From an uncultured Anaerolineaceae bacterium (GTDB lineage Bacteria; Chloroflexota; Anaerolineae; Anaerolineales; UBA4823): a stretch of 64,000 bases of DNA. Where the stretch lies: contig CAZWFQ010000001.1 of assembly GCA_964633225.1 (NCBI GenBank), forward strand, positions 137,477 through 201,476, given 5' to 3'. Shown here piece after piece: positions 31,857 through 54,723 of the stretch. The notes below the pieces were generated by a model that was not told the origin of the DNA, made no database searches, and saw only the letters and a list, made by a program, of their open reading frames with translations. Every line of letters starts with the position of its first letter. The first letter of the stretch is position 1. The translations under genes and the position numbers were made by a program.

Positions 31857-34016
31857 TCATGATCTTCCAGCCTCTTTACTGGGTTCTTCAGGGGCCGCAT
31901 TTTGGGCCTGGTTCAGTTGGGGGTATTGGATGCGCGAGTGGTAAGCCCCCTGTAGCGTGGTGGTGAAAGATTCAACGATTGTATCCAGGTCGCGCAGGGT
32001 CAGGTTGGTTTCATCTAATTGGCCCAGCGTGCGGCGGCTTTCCACCATGTCACGGATCAGGGTGCGCAGCTCGTCTGCATCTTTGGGCCGCTCGGCGCGC
32101 ATGCGCGCTTCTGCCCCATCGGCCAGCATCAGCAGGGCTGTTTCACGCGACTGGGGGCGTGGACCTGGGTAACGGAAGGCATATTGATCCACTTTACTTT
32201 CATCGCCGCCGTTGGCTTCAACCGCTCGCACATATTGGTAGCGCGTGGTCAGGGTGCCGTGATGTTCGAGAATGAAGTCTTGCAAACGGCGCGGCAGACG
32301 GTATTTGCGAGCCAGGGTGACGCCGTCGGTGACATGGCGGATAATGGTCGCTGCGCTGACCGCCGGGTCCAGATCGTCGTGGGGGTTGATATCGCCGGGT
32401 GGCTGGTTTTCGATGAAAAAATAGGGATTGAGCGCTTTCCCGGCATCGTGATAAAGCGCCCCCACCCGGGCCAACGAGCCGTTTGCGCCGATGTGTTCGG
32501 CTGCCTGCTCGACCAGGTTGGCTAATTGCAGGCTGTGCTGGTAGGTGCCGGGGGCATTGCGCAGGATGTACTGTAAAAGTGGGTGGTCGGGGCGAGAAAG
32601 CTCCACCAACTGAAGCCCGGTGGTCATATCCATAATTTGCGCCAAGAAGTAGTGCAGCAGCAAGCTGATGCTGGTAGAAGCTACGCCGTTGACGACGGAT
32701 GCCCCAGCCAGGGTAGCCAACCCGACCACATCGGCCGTGGGCTGAAGCAGGCGGTAAGTGGTGGCGATCAGCGCGCCCGATATGGCAATGGCAGCCCCGG
32801 CAGCGAAGAAATCGGTGATCCGCCGGGCACGCTGCAGCGCAAAAATGCCAAAGATACTGCTCAAGGCATAGAACATGGTCAGGTCAAGGGCTGAAGGAAT
32901 CTGATAAGCAGCCAGGATTGCCAGGGGCAGGCTGGATATGATTGCCATTTCAGCCCCAAACAGTGCCGCCACGGTCAGGCCATAGGCCATCAGGGGGTAA
33001 ACGTATGGAATTACGGTACGACCAGGGATGATGAGCCGGGCGGCTAGCAGGAAGAAGATGAACAAAGCCAGCAAGACTGCCAGGCTGCGCAGGCCCAAAG
33101 GTGCTTTTACCAGAGCGCCCCGGCGGCGCAGATAGATGGCGATCAATGCACTGACCACCACGGTGATGATTACCGCGCTGAGAATATCTTGCCAGCGCTC
33201 TTCAGGTTGGGCCATGCCGTATTTCTCTAAGGCCTCAAGATCCTGATCGGTGATGACCTGGCCGCGTTGGACGATGTTTTGCCCCGCCACCAAAGAGCGC
33301 ATCACCGGCGGCGTATTTTGGCGGGCCTGCTGGCGGGCGGCTTCTGTCAGATCTTCATTGTAGATGCTGTTAGGGACGATGAAAGCCGTCACCAGTTCAG
33401 CCGTGATATCTGCCTGTTCTTCTGTGAGTGACAGGCTGATCAGCGTGGGCACATTACGCCGGACGTCCTCCAGGCGGTTTTCGCGCACGGTGTTGCGCAT
33501 GACCTGTTCTAGCACCACAATGGCTTCTTGATATACCACTTGCCAGCGTGCTTCGCTGAGGGAAAGAATTGCCAGGCCGGTATCGTGGCTGGTCTGCATG
33601 TATTCCAGGGCAGCCATGTCGGCCAGTTTTTGCTCACTGCTGGCATAACGGTCTGAGCGTACACTGCTGATATAGGCCAGGGCGGCACTCAGGCGTTCGA
33701 GCTGCTGGCGGGCGATCTCGGTATCGGGCGAGGAATAAACCAGGGCTACCGCGTTGGCGGTCAGCTCTTGCTGGCGTTGGGTAAGGACCTGGCTTTCGTA
33801 CGTTAGATCGTAAGGCGCCTCGATATCGTAAGGCGCAACCTGGCCGCTGTAAAGAGAAGCTTCGGCCAGGTTGCCAAACTCAGGCACGATCAGCGCGATA
33901 AAGATCCCACTGCTGAGAAGAAACAGCAACAAGCCCAGCACATAGGAACGCCGGGCAAAAAACTGTTTGAGCAGTGATTGGCCTGAGGGGATCGTTAACG
34001 CATGCAGCGTGCGCAT
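31857..34016 (-). CDS. pgpH: 7TM-receptor HD-domain phosphohydrolase (YqfF/PgpH-like, candidate c-di-AMP phosphodiesterase)
   Basis: 719 aa. An extracellular N-terminal region, seven TM helices, then an HD domain (GALYHDAGK, LEHHGT). Confidence 0.8.
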   Translation of the reverse strand: MRTLHALTIPSGQSLLKQFFARRSYVLGLLLFLLSSGIFIALIVPEFGNLAEASLYSGQVAPYDIEAPYDLTYESQVLTQRQQELTANAVALVYSSPDTEIARQQLERLSAALAYISSVRSDRYASSEQKLADMAALEYMQTSHDTGLAILSLSEARWQVVYQEAIVVLEQVMRNTVRENRLEDVRRNVPTLISLSLTEEQADITAELVTAFIVPNSIYNEDLTEAARQQARQNTPPVMRSLVAGQNIVQRGQVITDQDLEALEKYGMAQPEERWQDILSAVIITVVVSALIAIYLRRRGALVKAPLGLRSLAVLLALFIFFLLAARLIIPGRTVIPYVYPLMAYGLTVAALFGAEMAIISSLPLAILAAYQIPSALDLTMFYALSSIFGIFALQRARRITDFFAAGAAIAISGALIATTYRLLQPTADVVGLATLAGASVVNGVASTSISLLLHYFLAQIMDMTTGLQLVELSRPDHPLLQYILRNAPGTYQHSLQLANLVEQAAEHIGANGSLARVGALYHDAGKALNPYFFIENQPPGDINPHDDLDPAVSAATIIRHVTDGVTLARKYRLPRRLQDFILEHHGTLTTRYQYVRAVEANGGDESKVDQYAFRYPGPRPQSRETALLMLADGAEARMRAERPKDADELRTLIRDMVESRRTLGQLDETNLTLRDLDTIVESFTTTLQGAYHSRIQYPQLNQAQNAAPEEPSKEAGRS

Positions 34017-34036
34017 GAAAACATTTCCTCTGCTGC

Positions 34037-34483
34037 TTATTGCAGCAACTTCCGTACAGCCTGGCTGGCTTGGTCGCCGGTGGCGCGCCCTTGCAGGCGC
34101 GGAACCAGGTTTTTCATCACCTGCCCCATCTCACGAATGGAAGTGGCGCCGGTCTCCGCGATGACCTGGCGTGCCAGTTCTTCTAGCTCTGCGGGAGAGA
34201 TGGATTTGGGCAGGAATTCTTCTAAAATGATGATCTCAGCTTCTGCTGCTGCGATCAGGTCAGGTCGTTGGGCGCGCTCGGCATCTGTAATCGATTCGCG
34301 GCGCGACTTGACTTCCTTTTGAACAATCGCCAGGTAGGCGGTTTCATCCAGTTCTTTGCTGCCAGGCTGCACTTCAGCCAGCTTGATGGCAGCAATGGCC
34401 ATTCGAAGGGTATCTTTGCGCATCTTGTCGCCGGCGCGCAGGGCGTCTTTTAGTGCCTCTTGAAGTTTTGTCTTGGTATCCAT
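34037..34483 (-). CDS. yqeY: GatB/YqeY-domain protein
   Basis: 148 aa. MDTKTKLQEALKDALRAGDK...AIVQKEVKSRRESI...MGQVMK is the typical YqeY layout. Confidence 0.85.
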   Translation of the reverse strand: MDTKTKLQEALKDALRAGDKMRKDTLRMAIAAIKLAEVQPGSKELDETAYLAIVQKEVKSRRESITDAERAQRPDLIAAAEAEIIILEEFLPKSISPAELEELARQVIAETGATSIREMGQVMKNLVPRLQGRATGDQASQAVRKLLQ

Positions 34484-34489
34484 AATGTT

Positions 34490-35782
34490 TTATCGCCTAA
34501 CGATTTGCCCCGATAAGCCATTGGGGCTGTATCCCGTCACATGCACCGGCGTGATCCGGTTCCACCAGCCTGGGGCCGTGTCATTGCCTGGAAGACGGGT
34601 ATGGACGCGCAGGTAATTGCTGGTCAGACCGCCTAAAACCCATTCTGGTCCGTCTGCATCTACGCTTTCCCACAATACGCTGACTTCTTGATCCAGAAAA
34701 GCAACCTGGTATGCCTGGGCGGCCTGCATCAAGATCTGGCGAACCTGGGCACTGCGGGCTTTGCGTACGGCATACGTCACCTGGTCTGGCATGTCTGCCG
34801 CGGCTGTGCCGGGGCGGGCAGAGTAGTTGAAAACATGCCCGCCAGCAAACTGCATCTCTTGAATAAAGGCCAGGCTTTCTTCAAACTCAGCTTCGTTCTC
34901 GCCTGGAAAGCCTACAATGATATCGGTGCTGATTGCCAGGCCTGGGATAGCGGAGCGGGCGGCAGCCAGCAGGCTGGCATACGCAGCCGGGGTGGTCTTA
35001 CGCGCCATGCGCCGCAGGGTGGCGGCACTGCCCGATTGCAAAGGCAGGTGCAGGTGCGGGCACAGGCGCTCATCTTGCCAGAGCTCGAAGAAGCGCTCGT
35101 CAATATCCCACGGTTCCAGAGAAGACAAGCGCAGGCGTGGCACAGTTGTCTTTTCCAACACGCCTTTTACCAGGCAGCCCAAGGACTGGCCTTCGGCAGA
35201 ATCTCGTCCCCAAGATCCCAGATGCACCCCGGTCAGCACGATCTCCTGGGCACCGCCTTGTAGGGCATCTTCCACGTCCGCCAGCACGGCTGGCAGGGGG
35301 CGGCTGCGGGAAGGGCCGCGTGCAATGGTGGTGACACAGAAAGTGCAGCGGTTGTTGCAGCCATCTTGCACTTTGATGAATGCCCGCGTCCGGTGGCGAG
35401 CGCCGGGGATGGGCTGGCGGGCAGCATGCTCCAGGTCAAGTGCCTCTGGTGCCAGTTGCAAGACGTTCGCGACAAGCTGGTCTTTTTCCAGGTTGCCGAT
35501 TACCTGGCTCACGCCTGGTAGGGCAGCCGCCTCGCCAGGCTGTAAGGTAGCCCAACAGCCGGTCAGGATGATCTGCCTGACGCCCTGGCGGGCAGCCTGG
35601 CGTGCCTTTTGGCGTGAGTCTGATGCGGCTTCAGCAGTCACCGCACAGGTGTTGAGCACCACCAGATCCGCCTGCTCTGGGCTTGCAACCAGGTTGTGCC
35701 CTGCCAGGCGAAACTGGCGGGCGTAGATTTCGATCTCGCTTTGGTTGAGGCGACAACCGACTGTATCCAGGTAGACGTTCAT
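34490..35782 (-). CDS. mtaB: MiaB-family radical-SAM methylthiotransferase (MtaB-like)
   Basis: Start MNVYLDTVGCRLNQSE (UPF0004 domain). Radical-SAM motif CNNRCTFC. C-terminal TRAM-like end. The ATG at 35782 is preferred to the longer track start. Confidence 0.85.
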   Translation of the reverse strand: MNVYLDTVGCRLNQSEIEIYARQFRLAGHNLVASPEQADLVVLNTCAVTAEAASDSRQKARQAARQGVRQIILTGCWATLQPGEAAALPGVSQVIGNLEKDQLVANVLQLAPEALDLEHAARQPIPGARHRTRAFIKVQDGCNNRCTFCVTTIARGPSRSRPLPAVLADVEDALQGGAQEIVLTGVHLGSWGRDSAEGQSLGCLVKGVLEKTTVPRLRLSSLEPWDIDERFFELWQDERLCPHLHLPLQSGSAATLRRMARKTTPAAYASLLAAARSAIPGLAISTDIIVGFPGENEAEFEESLAFIQEMQFAGGHVFNYSARPGTAAADMPDQVTYAVRKARSAQVRQILMQAAQAYQVAFLDQEVSVLWESVDADGPEWVLGGLTSNYLRVHTRLPGNDTAPGWWNRITPVHVTGYSPNGLSGQIVRR

Positions 35783-35817
35783 ACAATGTGCGCGGCAATA
35801 TCCGCGTAGAGAAGCGC

Positions 35818-35860
35818 ATCGGGGTGCTGTGAGCCGCCTTGCGCGCTTCAGCACCCCGAT
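35818..35860 (-). other. 12-bp perfect hairpin without a U-tract, between the kinase/lipoprotein string and mtaB
   Basis: ATCGGGGTGCTG (35818-35829) pairs with CAGCACCCCGAT (35849-35860). The loop is 19 nt. On the coding (minus) strand it is not followed by a U-run. Confidence 0.45.
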
Positions 35861-35878
35861 TTAGGCGTTTAGAAAATC

Positions 35879-36529
35879 TTAGGGCTTGCGAACAACCAGG
35901 TTATCAAAGTGAATGTCGCTACCAGCGCCGCCGGTTGACGAGGCGCCTGCAATCAAGCCAATATCACCTGAAGCATAGGCTGTGTCGTTAGCCGAGCCAA
36001 CCAATTGACCATTGACGGTCAAGGTCAGGGTTGAGCCAACGCAGTCGGCCTTGATGTGGTTGGTGGCATTACCCAGGTTGATGGTTTCGGTAGGCTGGTA
36101 CATGTCGGTGCCAAAGAGGCTCAAATCGCCATCTGTGACTTTGCCGATACCGTAGTAGCCATCACTGCTGATCAGGAAGAGATAGAAGTTGCTCTCGTTC
36201 TGATAGCGGCAGATGACGCCAAACAGGTTGTCATCTGGTCCGGCGGCCTTGGTGGCGTCTACTTCCAGGCTCATATCTGTGAAGCTCAAGCCAGGATTGG
36301 CCCAGTAGATTTCATCGGCCTCATCCAGGATGCGGTAATAGCCGTTCTCGTAATCCGTCATCCCTTCGCCATCCACCGAGACTTCGTCCCAGCCACTGTT
36401 GGAACTGGAGAAATCGTCCTGGAACAGGATGTTGGGATCCGATGGGGCGGCCGGGGTTGTGCTACCGCAGGCCAGGATAGCCAGGCTCAGCACCACCACA
36501 ATAGCTGTAAACTGCCAACTTTTCTTCAT
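35879..36529 (-). CDS. Secreted/lipoprotein paralog 1 of the kinase ectodomain
   Basis: 216 aa with an AAGGAGA Shine-Dalgarno sequence. Signal peptide ending LAILAC. The mature part aligns over its full length with ORF 36572-37243 and with the C-terminal 180 aa of the kinase. Shared blocks: LFQDDFS, SGW, NPGL, GPDDN, ICRY, NFY, ISSDGYYG, TLTVNG, GLI.G, FDNLVV.KP-stop. Confidence 0.78.
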   Translation of the reverse strand: MKKSWQFTAIVVVLSLAILACGSTTPAAPSDPNILFQDDFSSSNSGWDEVSVDGEGMTDYENGYYRILDEADEIYWANPGLSFTDMSLEVDATKAAGPDDNLFGVICRYQNESNFYLFLISSDGYYGIGKVTDGDLSLFGTDMYQPTETINLGNATNHIKADCVGSTLTLTVNGQLVGSANDTAYASGDIGLIAGASSTGGAGSDIHFDNLVVRKP

Positions 36530-36571
36530 TTCTTAATCTCCTTATTCGTACATGTTGATGTTAATTGCCTT

Positions 36572-37243
36572 TTATGGTTTGGCGACCACAAAATTATCAA
36601 ATAAGATATCTACCCCGGCTGTCTCGTAAGCTCCTACGATCAGGCCCACGTCGCCGGATGTGAATTCTGTATCGTTTACATCTGCCAGCACCTGTCCATT
36701 TACAGTCAGGGTTAGGCTGCTGCCCGCACACCGCACCTGTAGATGGTTGGTGCTGCTGCCGATCTTTACAATTGTATCGTTAAATCCCAATGATTCCATA
36801 CCAATCAAGAATTCTTCGCCATCGACAAATTTGCTCACCCCGTAATAGCCATCACTGCTGATGGTGAAAAAGTAGAAGTTGGCATCATCTCTGTAGCGGC
36901 AGATGATCCCCAGATCGTTCTCGTCTGGTCCGCCGATCTTGGTGGCATCGACATCAATGAGCACGTCCGATAAGCTTAAGCCTGGGTTGCTCCAGAACCA
37001 CCAACTGGCCTTATTGACCAGGATGCGATACCCGTCATTGTAATAATCATTTGTGGCATCTGCATCTGCGTACCGGTCCCAGCCGCTGTTGACATCTGAA
37101 AAATCATCCTGGAAAAGTACGCTGGGCTGAGGCGTGCTGCCTGGCTGACTGGTTTCTCCAGATGGGATGCTTAACGTCTGGCAAGCCATCGCCAACAAGA
37201 CCAATATGCTTATAGTCAATAGGAAATGACTAGAACGCCTCAT
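36572..37243 (-). CDS. Secreted/lipoprotein paralog 2 of the kinase ectodomain
   Basis: 223 aa with an AGGAG Shine-Dalgarno sequence. Signal peptide ending LLAMAC. It carries the same motif series and ends FDNFVVAKP-stop. Confidence 0.78.
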   Translation of the reverse strand: MRRSSHFLLTISILVLLAMACQTLSIPSGETSQPGSTPQPSVLFQDDFSDVNSGWDRYADADATNDYYNDGYRILVNKASWWFWSNPGLSLSDVLIDVDATKIGGPDENDLGIICRYRDDANFYFFTISSDGYYGVSKFVDGEEFLIGMESLGFNDTIVKIGSSTNHLQVRCAGSSLTLTVNGQVLADVNDTEFTSGDVGLIVGAYETAGVDILFDNFVVAKP

Positions 37244-37279
37244 GTTTGTTACTCCTGGATTCGGAAAATGGCCTAACGA

Positions 37280-39127
37280 TCATGGCTTTGAAACAATAAA
37301 ATCATCGAAGACAATGTCGGTGCCAGCCGTGTTGAAGGTGCCTACGATCAGGCCTGGCACTCCCTCGTTGAAAGTGCTGTCGACGACCTGGGCCAAGCGT
37401 GTACCGTTAGCATATAACGTGAGGGTGTTGCCGACACAATCGGCACGCAGGGTGTTGACGGTCTCGCCCTGGTGGATGACCTGGCTGTACTGCATGCCCT
37501 CGTCAAACACCGTCGTAGAGCCGTTCAACCGTTTCAGGATGGCATAGTAGCCATCGCTGCTGATCACCAGCAGGTAAAAATTTTGATCGTCTTGGTACCG
37601 GCAGATGAGTCCCAAAACGTTGTCGTCGGGGCCAGCCACTTTCTCTGCCTGCACCTCAATGCTGGCATCGGCAAGCTTGACCTCTGTGGTAGCCCAAAAC
37701 CAGGCATTTGGAACATCTACCAGGATGTGGTAACTGCCTCCCTCGTAATTCATCAGGCCGTCGATATCTTGGTATGTGCTCCAGCCGCTTTGCGGGTTAG
37801 AAAAATCGTCTTGGAAAAGGATCGCGCCTGCTGCTGGCAGAGTGCTGGTGGCAGCCATAGGGGTTGTATCATTGGACGGCGGCGTGACGGTGGCTGGAAT
37901 GTTCACAATAGCCGTCGGTTCGGGTGTACTGCTGGGGTTTAATGCCATCCACAGGCTGCCCCCTAAAGCGCTTGCCACGCATAAGACTGCCCCCAAAATA
38001 GCTGCCCCGCCTAATGCCCATACGACCCAAGGTATTTTCTTTGTCTGCTGCCGGGCAATGGCTGGTGAAGATGCAGGGCGTACAGGCGCAGGGGTGCTGC
38101 CGGGCTGGGATGCTGGCGCATGGATTGGTGAGGGAGTGGGCGTGCGCAGTGGGCTAACCGGCTGGGATGGCTGCGGTGTGATGGGGCGGGCTGGACCAGC
38201 CGGCCGGGATGGCGGGGGTGTCATTGGGCGGGCCGCGGCAGATGGTGCTGGAGCGCCGTCCGAATCCGCGGCAGGTGTACGTGTCATGGATGGGCTGGGG
38301 CTGGCATCGGCCTGAATCGCAATTATTTCGAGTGCGCTGGCCATATCACTGGCAGTTTGAAAACGCCTGTCGCGTTCTTTGGCCATGGCTCGTTCGATCA
38401 AATCTTCACAGGCCGCCGGCAGATCAGCTTTGACCGCCAGGATGCGCGGGACGGGGTCAATCAGGTGTTTCATCGCAATGCCCATGGGGGTTGTGGCCTC
38501 GTAGGGCAGCCTGCCTGTCAGCATCTCGAACAGGATGGCGCCCAGGGCATAGATATCGCTGCGGTGGTCAATGTCGCCGTCGCCGCGCGCCTGCTCGGGA
38601 CTCATATAAGATGGCGTGCCGATCAGCGCGTCGCCGGTTAGCGCAACGCTGGCCTCGGCCAGGTGGGCAATACCAAAATCGGATAGATACGCATTGCCGT
38701 GCGGGTCGAATAATATGTTGGCGGGTTTCAGGTCACGGTGGATGATGCCCTTCGAATGTACGTAATCCAGGGCTGATGCCAGACGTGAAAAAATGCGGTT
38801 GGTCTTGTCGATCGGCAGCGGGCCTTGCTTGAGCAAGTCTGCCAGCGAGCCGCCCGGCATATAGCGCATCACCAGGTAAGGCTGGCCGTTCTCGTCGCCA
38901 TAATCGTAAACAGGCACAATGCCAGGAAATTCCAGCGAGGCGATGGTTTGCGCTTCCCGTTCAAAGCGGGCCCGGAACATAGCCTCGTGCATAAACGCCG
39001 CCGGCAAGACCTTGATTGCCACATCGCGCTTGAAACGCGGGTCAATTGCCTTGTAGACTGAGGCCATGCCGCCGCGCCCTAGCTCGGCTTTGATTTCGTA
39101 CCGGTCAATCTTTTGGGGTAACATCAA
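37280..39127 (-). CDS. Hanks-type Ser/Thr protein kinase with a TM segment and an extracytoplasmic beta-rich sensor domain
   Basis: 615 aa. Kinase motifs GRGGMASVYKA, VAIKVL, HRDLKPANIL, DFGIA, SYMSPEQ. A Pro/Ala/Ser-rich linker follows, then the TM segment WVVWALGGAAILGAVLCVASALGG. The C-terminal 180 aa (nt ~37283-37822) are paralogous to the two downstream ORFs. Confidence 0.9.
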   Translation of the reverse strand: MMLPQKIDRYEIKAELGRGGMASVYKAIDPRFKRDVAIKVLPAAFMHEAMFRARFEREAQTIASLEFPGIVPVYDYGDENGQPYLVMRYMPGGSLADLLKQGPLPIDKTNRIFSRLASALDYVHSKGIIHRDLKPANILFDPHGNAYLSDFGIAHLAEASVALTGDALIGTPSYMSPEQARGDGDIDHRSDIYALGAILFEMLTGRLPYEATTPMGIAMKHLIDPVPRILAVKADLPAACEDLIERAMAKERDRRFQTASDMASALEIIAIQADASPSPSMTRTPAADSDGAPAPSAAARPMTPPPSRPAGPARPITPQPSQPVSPLRTPTPSPIHAPASQPGSTPAPVRPASSPAIARQQTKKIPWVVWALGGAAILGAVLCVASALGGSLWMALNPSSTPEPTAIVNIPATVTPPSNDTTPMAATSTLPAAGAILFQDDFSNPQSGWSTYQDIDGLMNYEGGSYHILVDVPNAWFWATTEVKLADASIEVQAEKVAGPDDNVLGLICRYQDDQNFYLLVISSDGYYAILKRLNGSTTVFDEGMQYSQVIHQGETVNTLRADCVGNTLTLYANGTRLAQVVDSTFNEGVPGLIVGTFNTAGTDIVFDDFIVSKP

Positions 39128-39151
39128 GATTATTTTAACATACCCGGCCGC

Positions 39152-40591
39152 TTAAGGGAAATAGTAAGCCAACAGTCGATTGGCTTGTTCAGCCGTCCAA
39201 CTGCCCGGAGCAAGGCTTTCAGCCAGGTCAAATTCTAACTCGGCGCGGCTGGCATCCCCCCGGTAATAGAATACCAGGCCCATGTGCAGGTGTGCGGGGG
39301 CGTAATCGCTGTCAATAGCCAGCGCCCGGCGTAAAAAGCGTTCGGCATTCAGCCAATCTCCCAGGTAGAGCAGGGTCTGGGCCAGGGTATCCAGCGATTG
39401 GGGATCGCTGGGGTTCAGGGTCACTGCCCGGCGGGCAGCAGGCAGCCCTAGTTCCCGTACCTGGATCTGGTACTGCATCGAAAAACCAGCCAACAGCCGC
39501 CAGTACGTTGGGTCGTAGGGGTTGAGCGCAATGGCCCGTTCAAAGTAAGACTGGGCCGTGGGAAGATTTCCGCCCTGGGCATAGGTTTGCCCGATCTCAA
39601 CCAGCAGGATGGGGTTTTGGGGGTCGAGTTGCTGAGCAGTTTGCAGGTATTGAAGGGCCTGTTGGTTGTTGGCATGCCGCTGCCAGTATAAACCTGCAAA
39701 CAGGTTGGCAGACACCGATTGCGGATCGATCTGCAAGGCTTGTTCCAGCTCAGCCAGGCCGTCTGAGGCCCCTGGCACATCCGCCTGCCGGATGTGCTGG
39801 CGGGCCTCGCCCAGGTAAGCCCAGGCCTCGGCATAATCTGGGCGGAGGCCCACGGCCTGGTGAAAAGCCACCGCAGCCATCTGCCACTCATCTAAAGATG
39901 CCAGGGCCCGGCCGCTGGATAGCAGGGTGTAAGCCGGGTCTTCGGGCTGCTGCGCGGCCTGGATGCTGTTCAAGATCTGCCCGGCAGAAAAAGCCCGCCC
40001 AGGGTCGGTAGAGGCCAGTTCCAGGTAAGGGATGGCCTCTTGGGGCTGCCAGGCAGCCAACAGCAGTCCCAGTTGATAGGCAAGCTGGATGTCTGTGGGA
40101 GTCAGGGCCAGGGCAGCTTGCAGGTCTGCGATGGCGGCCGGGTAATCCTGGCGTTGTAAGTGGTAATTTGCCAGGCGCAGGTGGGCTGCAGGTGAAGGGG
40201 GCTGCAACTGGGCGGCTTGCTGCCAGAACGCTTCGGCTGCCAGGGCATCGCCAGATGCCAGGAAAAGATCCCCAAAAGTCAACAAGTCACTTTCGCTCAG
40301 TTGATCGGCCGTGCCGGCTTGCTCGAAAAGCCGCATGGCGCTTTGTAGGTCGCCGGCCTGCAGCGCATGCCGGGCGGCTGAGATCCATAAATCACTGCGC
40401 CAGGGATAGTAAGGCGCAGCTTGCTCCAGGGATGCTGCCGCAGCGCGTGAATCTGCTTGCTGCACTGCCTGTTGTGCCTCGTAGAAGGCCTGGCGGGCAG
40501 CATGGGGTTGTGGCGCCAACCCCAGCAGGGCAATTGCCAGCCCAACCAGGATGGCGCGCAGGGTAGCGGTGATGCGTGCCGATACTTTCAT
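39152..40591 (-). CDS. Membrane-anchored/secreted TPR-repeat protein
   Basis: 479 aa. N-terminal hydrophobic anchor LRAILVGLAIALLGLA. TPR-like repeats run throughout. It lies 24 nt upstream of the kinase gene. Confidence 0.8.
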   Translation of the reverse strand: MKVSARITATLRAILVGLAIALLGLAPQPHAARQAFYEAQQAVQQADSRAAAASLEQAAPYYPWRSDLWISAARHALQAGDLQSAMRLFEQAGTADQLSESDLLTFGDLFLASGDALAAEAFWQQAAQLQPPSPAAHLRLANYHLQRQDYPAAIADLQAALALTPTDIQLAYQLGLLLAAWQPQEAIPYLELASTDPGRAFSAGQILNSIQAAQQPEDPAYTLLSSGRALASLDEWQMAAVAFHQAVGLRPDYAEAWAYLGEARQHIRQADVPGASDGLAELEQALQIDPQSVSANLFAGLYWQRHANNQQALQYLQTAQQLDPQNPILLVEIGQTYAQGGNLPTAQSYFERAIALNPYDPTYWRLLAGFSMQYQIQVRELGLPAARRAVTLNPSDPQSLDTLAQTLLYLGDWLNAERFLRRALAIDSDYAPAHLHMGLVFYYRGDASRAELEFDLAESLAPGSWTAEQANRLLAYYFP

Positions 40592-40599
40592 CGGATTGA

Positions 40600-40605
40600 A
40601 TTATA
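40600..40605 (-). promoter_or_regulatory. -10 box (TATAAT) 8 nt before the ATG of the TPR gene (near-leaderless candidate)
   Basis: The reverse strand reads CCGC-TATAAT-TCAATCCG-ATG(40591), with no Shine-Dalgarno sequence. Confidence 0.35.
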
Positions 40606-40693
40606 GCGGAAAGGCAGCATCGCGGGGGTATAATACGCCAAGATTTTTCAGGTGCGATAACAGCCTACACTGAAAACACTTAGGAGTGAAAGC

Positions 40694-53301: not shown

Positions 53302-54723
53302 ATGAGCAAATTTCAATGGAACAATGATTATTGGCCCCTGCCTGCCGGGCTTGTGGGGCTTGTCCTCTTGGTCATCGCCTTCCTGCGCTTTTGGGCTGGT
53401 GATTGGTCGGTTTTTGCCTATATTGCTGCTGGGGTGGGGGCCCTGGTGCTGCTCTTGGCTTTGGCCTGGTTTGGCTTTGCCTGGCAAAGCGAGCCTGGTC
53501 GAAAGAAGCGCCGCTCAGCGGCTGCTCCCCGCCGTTGGCGTTTTCCCCGCGCCCGTTATTGGGCCTGGGGAGGGCTGGCCCTCTGCCTGGTTGGCGGGGC
53601 GTTAGCGGGTTACTTCCTCTCGCAACAGCGCCAATCCTTTGGTCAAGTGCAGGCCCTGGTTTTTGTCAGCCAGGCCCAGGCTTTGGCCGAGTCTGGCCAG
53701 TATGAGCAGGCGGTTGAAGCGTATACATCTGCCATTGCGCTAGCCCCCAACTCTGTTGAGGCCTTAAATGGCCGCGGCCAGGCTTTTGCTTCCCAGGGCC
53801 TCTATGCCCAGGCCGTCAACGATTTTAATGCTGTCCTTGCCATCGATACCGACCTGCCCCAAACCTATCTCAACCGCGGCGCCGCCTACGCCGCCCAGGG
53901 TGAGTATGCCCGTTCTATCTTAGATTACGACTCTGCCCTGCGTCTTGACGATCAGCTTCTTGAAGCCTACAACAATCGCGGCCTGGCCCACTCGTATCTT
54001 AACGAGATGGAAGCCGCCTTTGCTGATTATGATGCCGCCCTCGCCATTGACCCTCTCTATACCAAAGCCTATACCAGCCGCGGTATGACCTTCAGCTTGC
54101 TCGAAGAATACGAGCTTGCCCTGGCTGATTTCAACAAGATCCTCCAGATCGACCCCCAGAACGTTTCGGGCTACGTTAATCGCGGCAATGTCTATGCCCT
54201 GATGAGCTTCTATGACAAAGCGATTGCTGATTACGATGCCGCCTTGGACATTGACCCCCGCAGTGCTGCCGCCTACAGCCACCGCGGCATGGCCTATGCC
54301 AGGCTTGAACAGTACCAGCAGGCCATTGCCGATTACGATGCCGCCTTGCAGATCGATGCTCAAGATGCCGAAGTGCTCACCAACCGCGGCCTGGCTTACT
54401 TCAGGCTCGGTCAAAACCAACCAGCCCTGACGGATTTCGGCCTGGCGATCCAGGTTGATCCTCAGTATGCCGATGCTTACAACAACCGCGGCATTGCTTA
54501 TGCTGGCATGGAAGAATATGCCCTCGCCCTCGTTGATTTCGACAAGGCCATCGAGCTTGACCCCCAAGATGCCAACCCTTACCTGGGCCGTGGTATTGCA
54601 CATGTCTTGCAGGGTAATTTTGAGCAAGGCGAGAGCGACCTGCGTACCTGCCTTACCCTGTGCTCTGAGGTCCAGGTTTGCGATGCTGCTCAGTCTGCCC
54701 TGAACATGCTTGTCCAGCCTTGA
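53302..54723 (+). CDS. Membrane-anchored TPR protein with ten contiguous 34-aa repeats
   Basis: 473 aa. Three N-terminal TM helices and an Arg-rich loop are followed by ten back-to-back TPR units (my count). They share the recurring signature A(I/L)ADYDAAL.IDP...AY..RG.AY. Confidence 0.8.
   Translation: MSKFQWNNDYWPLPAGLVGLVLLVIAFLRFWAGDWSVFAYIAAGVGALVLLLALAWFGFAWQSEPGRKKRRSAAAPRRWRFPRARYWAWGGLALCLVGGALAGYFLSQQRQSFGQVQALVFVSQAQALAESGQYEQAVEAYTSAIALAPNSVEALNGRGQAFASQGLYAQAVNDFNAVLAIDTDLPQTYLNRGAAYAAQGEYARSILDYDSALRLDDQLLEAYNNRGLAHSYLNEMEAAFADYDAALAIDPLYTKAYTSRGMTFSLLEEYELALADFNKILQIDPQNVSGYVNRGNVYALMSFYDKAIADYDAALDIDPRSAAAYSHRGMAYARLEQYQQAIADYDAALQIDAQDAEVLTNRGLAYFRLGQNQPALTDFGLAIQVDPQYADAYNNRGIAYAGMEEYALALVDFDKAIELDPQDANPYLGRGIAHVLQGNFEQGESDLRTCLTLCSEVQVCDAAQSALNMLVQP

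Follow-up and report, generated by a model that had tools for sequence, protein, structure and literature searches.

How does a bacterial receptor kinase come to be encoded next to free-standing lipoproteins that are built from its own extracytoplasmic domain, and what might these lipoproteins do for it? The question arises from four genes in a stretch of 64,000 nucleotides (nt) of DNA, here called the window, from an uncultured Anaerolineaceae bacterium (Chloroflexota, Anaerolineales; assembly GCA_964633225.1, contig CAZWFQ010000001.1, positions 137,477 to 201,476). These genes encode a tetratricopeptide repeat (TPR) protein, T, a Hanks-type Ser/Thr kinase, K, and two lipoproteins, X1 and X2, each carrying one domain, X, that also forms the C-terminus of K. 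Comparison across the class Anaerolineae suggests that T and a single free X are the ancestral unit at this locus, and that the kinase is a later addition in one sub-lineage. We tentatively propose that the free X proteins serve the kinase as co-receptors.

The four open reading frames (ORFs) are co-directional, all lie on the minus strand in the order T-K-X1-X2 (Table 1), and are separated by only 24 nt between T and K, 36 nt between K and X1 and 42 nt between X1 and X2. The first of these gaps grows to 27 nt if K is read from an ATG start, as in the public gene call for an identical protein (P0390), which begins at the ATG at 39124, one codon later, and gives 614 amino acids (aa). Both X genes have a Shine-Dalgarno sequence of their own, AGGAG and AAGGAGA respectively, and these together with the short gaps are compatible with one transcription unit; a scan for promoter and terminator consensus sequences gave nothing informative within the string. 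The order, spacing and ribosome-binding sites reported by a first-pass annotation of this DNA are thus borne out. In addition, the same genes were found with identical sequence on Logan contigs, and a relative at 84% identity carries the same T-K-X-X string.

We compared the three copies of X by BLASTP and found that the last ~190 residues of K match X1 at 46% identity (E 4e-58) and X2 at 47% identity (E 1e-56), while X1 and X2 are 48% identical to each other (E 2e-72). The three copies are collinear across the whole domain and each ends in KP directly before the stop codon, so that one tethered and two untethered copies of a single domain do lie within one tight gene string, as the first-pass annotation had claimed. 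The sequence blocks that it listed as common to all three hold for the most part: NPGL is restricted to X1 and X2, K having TTEV at this place, the block given as TLT(V/L).NG is LTL..NG, and G(I/V/L)GLI.G is GLI.G in K. Of 63 columns with at least 85% conservation among free X proteins, the K ectodomain retains 46, the Cys pair C115/C172 among them. X1 has a signal peptide with the lipobox LAMAC and Cys21, and X2 has the lipobox AILAC. At least 90% of the sequences in alignment A2 have this cysteine, and a PROSITE-type lipobox is present in 134 of 141 complete free X proteins, which are therefore predicted to be lipidated.

We then asked which of these genes belong together, using two sets of loci that were collected from opposite ends of the string. 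The X-seeded set comprised 79 GTDB species loci picked by similarity to X1, of which 74 had enough upstream sequence to be informative; the T-seeded set comprised metagenome contigs with 57 informative loci. A recurring layout emerged from the X-seeded loci, in which T is followed by X and by a MiaB-like radical S-adenosylmethionine (SAM) gene, mtaB, and often then by yqeY and pgpH. T lies directly upstream of X at 67 of the 74 informative GTDB loci, and the remaining seven yielded no T, also when a T profile was run at E 1e-3. The reciprocal search gave a similar picture, with T followed by X, or by K and then X, at 50 of the 57 metagenome loci; T leads straight to mtaB at four of the others, and neither X nor mtaB comes next at three. 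T is thus the most constant partner of X and not a passenger. Since the T-X pair is conserved in both sets, the ancestral unit is the pair and not the kinase, and on gene order this class-wide unit appears to consist of T and one free X just upstream of mtaB. Consistent with this, a neighbour-joining tree places X2 among the universal X proteins that many genomes have in single copy, and X1 with the first copies at the loci L045, L007 and L008, as an extra paralog common to these loci. X2, and not the copy within the kinase, therefore appears to be the ortholog of the single X that stands beside T in most Anaerolineae. Tandem X genes also occur where there is no kinase, at L007, L010, L058 and several metagenome loci.

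The distribution of the kinase is much narrower. Apart from the window, a kinase stands between T and X at only five of the 79 GTDB loci (L008, L038, L045, L048 and L051), and in neighbour-joining trees of MtaB and of T the genomes with a kinase fall together in a single region. A full-length search recovered more than 100 further kinases composed of kinase domain, transmembrane (TM) helix and X domain, at 41-81% identity to K. Six of these, at 43-56% identity, were sampled for their surroundings and five were found at a T/X locus (L088-L092). With K(X) for a kinase bearing an X domain and M for mtaB, the layout is T-K(X)-X-M at L008, L038/L088, L048, L051 and L089, T-K(X)-X-X-M in the window, L045/L094, L090 and L091, and T-X-X-X-K(X)-M at L092 (1147-6737), where the gene order has changed. 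Each kinase of this clade that was found at the locus adjoins at least one free X, with one to three free copies. Co-conservation of kinase and free copies among relatives, which the first-pass annotation had chosen in advance as a test capable of refuting its idea, was accordingly upheld. Its picture of a kinase ectodomain that had been re-encoded downstream is reversed, since T and free X appear ancestral and class-wide and the kinase appears to be an addition in one sub-lineage that has since stayed at this locus. We also considered a recent local duplication of a neighbouring X gene as the source of the K ectodomain and rejected it, because in a neighbour-joining tree the kinase ectodomains branch together, apart from every free X protein, a placement for which a long-branch artefact is possible. 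The 780 nt that separate T from X at L007 (9172-9949) were searched by tblastn for traces of a kinase, and none were found; this gap holds a SAM-methyltransferase-like ORF.

Two further loci carry kinases that have parted with the domain altogether. At L095 (2692-4656) and L101 (2429-4336), orthologous kinases with intact catalytic motifs end a few residues beyond the TM helix and have no ectodomain. In both cases T lies upstream and mtaB downstream, and next after the kinase gene comes a single free X gene that has a Shine-Dalgarno sequence, signal peptide and lipobox of its own. Both kinases nest inside the K(X) clade in a tree of kinase domains, indicating that the tethered X was lost secondarily while T and the free X were kept.

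To gauge constraint on the individual parts, the ratio of nonsynonymous to synonymous substitution rates (dN/dS) was computed between the window and L045. T had a ratio of 0.14; within K it was 0.09 in the kinase domain, 0.29 in the linker and 0.11 in the ectodomain; X1 had 0.10 and X2, the most constrained copy, 0.057. For comparison, MtaB and YqeY, two neighbours with housekeeping roles, gave 0.11 and 0.06. All X copies are under purifying selection and none is decaying.

Direct assignment of X to a family with Pfam and NCBIfam gave sub-threshold matches only. In hmmscan X1 and X2 scored 14.1 and 13.7 bits against PF06439, for which the gathering score is 26.8, and the K ectodomain gave no match to this model; a match to Laminin_G_3 was likewise below threshold. 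Relatives recovered by an X profile at E<1e-60 do pass the PF06439 gathering score, with 37-54 bits, and the X copies are thus homologous to this family, although they lie beyond the reach of its model. We additionally obtained an AlphaFold2 model of X1 from 34 homologs, which is all-beta with 14 strands and a mean confidence (pLDDT) of 92.1. A Foldseek search of the Protein Data Bank (PDB) with this model returned 710 matches at E<=1e-3, all of them ConA-like folds. The top match was the carbohydrate-binding module (CBM) CBM66 of the Bacillus subtilis levanase SacC (E 3.8e-10, TM-score 0.83 normalised on the target), and the entries 4b1m, 4azz and 4b1l matched with E 4e-10 to 3e-9, target-normalised TM-scores of 0.79-0.84 and a root-mean-square deviation of 2.5-3.1 Å. 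DUF1080 structures came next (3imm at E 4.6e-7, then 3s5q, 3u1x and 4jqt), followed by further ConA-like lectins and glucanases. Sequence searches of the PDB pointed in the same direction, a single X sequence finding only 3imm (E 0.013) and a profile finding 3imm at E 6.8e-4 and the levanase CBM66 chains at E 0.1-0.13 (14.5-14.9 bits). X thus shares the fold of CBM66 and falls outside that family by sequence. By this model X is a two-sheet ConA-like beta-sandwich of the jelly-roll type, and it forms a divergent branch of the DUF1080 superfamily, in agreement with the earlier guess of a ConA- or LamG-like beta-sandwich.

The family to which X belongs is very large, numbering 15,866 representative clusters when the cut-off is E<=1e-3 and still 1,511 when it is E<=1e-30. 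Among the best 150 representatives most have 2-13 X domains in tandem, and 13 are kinases with one to four X domains. Other members join X to a Zn-ribbon and a PD40 propeller, to an InhA-like protease with a MAM domain, to LppX_LprAFG, or, in a combination of TPRs with three X domains, to a partner that resembles T. The last of these, P0240 (1133 aa), is the top-scoring representative of the family, and its TPRs match the T profile at E 1.2e-6; judged from sequence, P0240 is a candidate 'Rosetta stone' fusion of T and X.

By both measures applied, a Pkinase match above the gathering score and a full set of catalytic motifs, K is a Hanks-type kinase. Residues 10-258 match PF00069 at 172.2 bits (gathering score 31.7), and the motifs GRGGMASV, VAIKVL, HRDLKPANI, DFGIA and YMSPEQ, read from the translation, are all intact. 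The best NCBIfam match of K is PknB_PASTA_kin (NF033483), at 327.6 bits, which is below the cut-off of 450 and spans positions 7-369 of the 563 in the model, that is, from the kinase domain to the TM helix only. No Pfam match to PASTA repeats was found in K, which accordingly does not qualify as a PknB/Stk1 PASTA kinase. It resembles these kinases in its kinase domain, juxtamembrane region and TM helix, all of which match the model, but carries an X domain where the PASTA repeats would sit.

T consists of TPRs throughout, matching TPR_11 at 85, TPR_2 at 79 and TPR_19 at 78 bits as well as other TPR families in Pfam, and PF23914 at 49.9 bits (gathering score 42). Its one hydrophobic segment, residues 3-21, marks an N-terminal signal-anchor in which K2, R6 and R12 precede a hydrophobic stretch, and this N-terminal anchor is kept in 57 of 63 orthologs. 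By the positive-inside rule, the TPRs of T are predicted to lie outside the cytoplasm. The window encodes a second TPR protein of 473 aa (53302-54723, plus strand), weakly similar to T (E 7e-13), which has no adjoining gene of the X family.

How these parts might work together can be framed as follows. We tentatively favour, at somewhat less than an even chance, a membrane-surface sensing module in which X is a glycan-binding lipoprotein, T a scaffold, K the readout and free X a co-receptor in trans. X would be a lipid-anchored, non-catalytic, lectin-like beta-sandwich that binds a glycan of the cell envelope or of the surroundings, and T a signal-anchored TPR scaffold that keeps X at the membrane. 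K, as a single-pass kinase that resembles PknB but has an X domain instead of PASTA repeats, would join the assembly of T and X by means of its own copy of X or of a membrane-proximal part, and would signal ligand binding or the state of the assembly to the cytoplasm by Ser/Thr phosphorylation. In this scheme, free X proteins would be trans-acting co-receptor subunits rather than unrelated enzymes. This co-receptor role gains indirect support from the ectodomain-less kinases, since these retain both T and a free X.

Several observations weigh against this proposal. Glycan binding, physical contact among T, X and K, and the direction of signalling are all things that we infer. The synteny of T, X and mtaB could in part reflect phylogenetic inertia, as all of it lies within one class; the trees of X, of MtaB and T, and of the kinase domain are all neighbour-joining trees without support values; and the T profile matches P0240 only weakly, TPRs being prone to cross-match. 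Kinase ectodomains differ from free X proteins at D56, at D198 and in the otherwise conserved W84/P87/F91 loop (the NPGL region), differences that could point to another ligand or partner. In addition, the orthologous K(X) kinase of L093 has neither T nor X nearby, and the distant X-kinases P0286 and P0323 sit in kinase arrays with no free X paralog or T beside them, which indicates that an X ectodomain can work without T and X partners. Finally, some members of the family pass the PF06439 threshold, and PF06439 includes a genuine hydrolase.

This last point leads to the first of three other explanations, in which the X proteins are periplasmic enzymes of the PF06439 type, 3-keto-glycoside hydrolases or related glycan-cleaving enzymes, and the K ectodomain senses their substrate or product. 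The PF06439 member BT2157 hydrolyses 3-keto-trehalose (PMC8121099), and the idea can also draw on the weak PF06439 matches of the window copies, on the relatives of X that exceed the PF06439 gathering score and on the DUF1080 structures among the fold matches. In the BT2156-BT2160-type 3-keto-glycoside system, however, these proteins cluster with Gfo/MviM-type dehydrogenases and a sugar isomerase/epimerase (PMC8121099), whereas no dehydrogenase or isomerase/epimerase gene appeared in the neighbour tables of the ~170 loci that we examined around T, K, X and MtaB, which list housekeeping genes only. We favour a binding module over an enzyme because the closest fold is that of a CBM, because tandem arrays and attachment to unrelated catalytic domains, here proteases and kinases, are typical of binding modules, and because BT2156-2159-type neighbours are missing; an enzymatic role for X consequently seems improbable to us. 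We give equally little credence to the idea that free X is a decoy or antagonist, which would compete with the K ectodomain for ligand or for T and so damp signalling, its copy number of one to three setting the threshold. Such a role would fit with the retention of most of the conserved residues of the domain in all copies, with the variable number of free X genes at kinase-bearing loci, and with a gene string so tight that co-expression could set the stoichiometry. T and X are nevertheless ancestral as a pair and occur in most genomes without a kinase at the locus, so that X has a function of its own, and ectodomain-less kinases keep X adjacent, which would leave a decoy with no sensor to compete against. 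The first-pass annotation had offered co-receptor, ligand shuttle and decoy together; the ectodomain-less kinases lend the co-receptor indirect support, while the decoy is disfavoured by the frequency of T-X pairs without a kinase.

The remaining explanation dispenses with functional coupling. X would be a promiscuous module that duplicates in tandem, one copy of which became fused to a kinase gene, and the arrangement would have persisted by descent while the proteins act independently. The sheer size of the family and its many unrelated domain partners suit this idea, as do the kinase-less tandem X genes, the position of the L093 kinase elsewhere in its genome and the confinement of kinase genomes to one part of the MtaB and T trees, which is compatible with a single event followed by inheritance. 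The association of the kinase with this locus has outlasted much, however: the reordering at L092, changes in X copy number, loss of the X domain from the kinase, and divergence of the kinases down to ~44% identity. Strong purifying selection on all parts also speaks against independence, and the short gaps and Shine-Dalgarno sequences of the X genes fit one transcription unit. On balance we consider an uncoupled origin unlikely, without dismissing it, and retain the sensing module as our working explanation.

Parts of this architecture have been met before. Among domains that occur exclusively in the periplasm, DUF1080 is reported to be the most frequent in the single-pass Ser/Thr kinases of Planctomycetota, where TPRs are also among the commonest external modules of such kinases (PMC11032199). 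Those DUF1080 kinases share the topology of K, with the Hanks kinase in the cytoplasm and, beyond a single TM helix, a beta-sandwich of the DUF1080 type on the outside. In the Anaerolineae system, by contrast, the domain belongs to a Chloroflexi branch that has diverged to scores under the PF06439 threshold, the TPRs form a separate protein, and the kinase gene lies in a conserved operon that also encodes lipoproteins paralogous to the ectodomain, an arrangement that PMC11032199 does not describe. The earlier statement that no such architecture was known can therefore not be maintained, in view of these kinases and of the 13 X-kinases among the best family representatives. In the literature on Chloroflexi, we found no description of a conserved operon with a TPR protein and free ectodomain paralogs, or of loss of the tethered copy. 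Thus a kinase with a DUF1080-type ectodomain is already known, and the operon of T and free X together with the loss of the tethered copy appears to be the new part.

Individual components can likewise be compared with known proteins. BT2157 (PF06439, PMC8121099) is, like X, a secreted ConA-like jelly-roll with a similar strand pattern, and its homology to X is transitive, through the relatives that score above threshold; X differs in scoring only ~14 bits against the 26.8 required, in being a lipoprotein paired with a TPR protein and a kinase, and in that any enzymatic role of X is putative. The CBM66 of SacC (4azz, 4b1l and 4b1m), a module that is attached to a GH32 enzyme and binds the terminal fructose of levan, is the best structural match of the X1 model and offers the precedent of a non-catalytic glycan-binding beta-sandwich, but it is only 16-18% identical to X, which has no GH32 attached or adjacent to it and possesses the Cys pair C115/C172 and an N-terminal LFQDDF strand. 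At the level of the whole system, the closest bacterial analogy is the glnH-glnX-pknG operon of Actinobacteria, in which a lipoprotein sensor is paired with a kinase and a TPR scaffold (PMC8546545). Both are operons with an external ligand-binding lipoprotein, a membrane component, a Ser/Thr kinase and a TPR element as docking scaffold. PknG differs in being soluble, with its own TPRs in the cytoplasm, whereas those of T are predicted outside, and GlnH is a solute-binding protein unrelated to X, so that the sensor lipoprotein is no paralog of a kinase domain.

A nearer parallel comes from plants. The LysM receptor kinase CERK1 works with CEBiP/LYM proteins, kinase-less and lipid-anchored, whose ectodomain is the same glycan-binding one and which function as co-receptors. 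These pairs are the closest analogy overall. We draw it as an analogy only; kingdom, domain and anchor chemistry all differ, and no common origin is suggested.

Table 1. Positions of the genes, domains and sequence elements of the locus within the window
Feature	Positions	Strand	Description or basis
T	39152-40591	-	ORF, 479-aa TPR protein
K	37280-39127	-	ORF, 615 aa from TTG start at 39127; Hanks-type Ser/Thr kinase
Cytoplasmic kinase domain of K	38354-39100	-	Pfam envelope, aa 10-258
Pro/Ser/Thr-rich juxtamembrane linker (aa ~286-364) and TM helix of K	37958-38272	-	Sequence, hydropathy
Single TM helix of K	37958-38035	-	aa ~365-390, RQQTKK just before; hydropathy
Extracytoplasmic X domain of K	37283-37855	-	Family hidden Markov model match, aa 425-615; BLASTP to X1 and X2
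AGGAG Shine-Dalgarno sequence of X1	37252-37256	-	Read in sequence
X1	36572-37243	-	ORF, 223-aa lipoprotein with one X domain
AAGGAGA Shine-Dalgarno sequence of X2	36537-36543	-	Read in sequence
X2	35879-36529	-	ORF, 216-aa lipoprotein with one X domain
Stem-loop between X2 stop and mtaB start	35815-35867	-	12 paired positions, 10 perfect; no U tract

Besides T and K, the neighbours of X are mtaB, yqeY, pgpH, coaX and sua5. Directly downstream of X2 (31857-35782, minus strand) lie the mtaB-like radical SAM gene, yqeY and a gene for a 7TMR-HDED/HD (PgpH-like) protein, which at L001 is followed by ybeY and dgkA; the linkage of this housekeeping block, mtaB-yqeY-pgpH, to T-X is kept in most Anaerolineae loci. 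The 103-nt gap between X2 and mtaB contains a stem-loop, with a minimum free energy for the gap of -41.4 kcal/mol (z = -3.06). This gap is 89% identical to that of L045, the closest relative, although synonymous sites differ by ~46-53%. The hairpin was not found in other loci beyond the window species and L045, has no Rfam match and was not flagged by a simple terminator scan; its role may be to end the operon or to make the RNA more stable. On the other side, the gap between coaX and T is only 102 nt in the window (40592-40693), while the 84%-identical relative (L004/L005, 943-4572, minus strand) has a gene for a 1209-aa guanylate-cyclase/AAA_16/TPR_MalT protein between coaX and T, and L006 has small ORFs there, making this space an indel hotspot beside the locus. 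The only Rfam match in the window is a T-box leader (RF00230, 28710-29000, minus strand) at 93.5 bits against a gathering score of 93, and at L004 a Phe-tRNA synthetase gene starts in the corresponding direction. ARAGORN found no tRNA genes in the 64 kb.

Taken together, these comparisons bear on a general gap, in that the signals of bacterial Hanks-type receptor kinases are mostly obscure apart from those of PASTA kinases. Comparative genomics here supplies candidate partners for one such kinase, a TPR scaffold and one to three free sensor copies, along with natural 'experiments' in gene order, copy number and loss of the tethered sensor, and these variants yield specific predictions that can be tested biochemically. 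It also flags a conserved pair of TPR protein and lipoprotein in the Anaerolineae, which are abundant in digesters and sediments and whose envelope biology is poorly known. A stronger version of our proposal, which we regard as possible but rather doubtful, is that T and free X are the true ligand-sensing apparatus of this PknB-like kinase, with X acting in trans and the kinase ectodomain dispensable; such a sensor would probably report an envelope glycan of filamentous Chloroflexi. If true, T, X and the kinase would be a bacterial counterpart of the pairs of receptor kinases and receptor-like proteins of plants.

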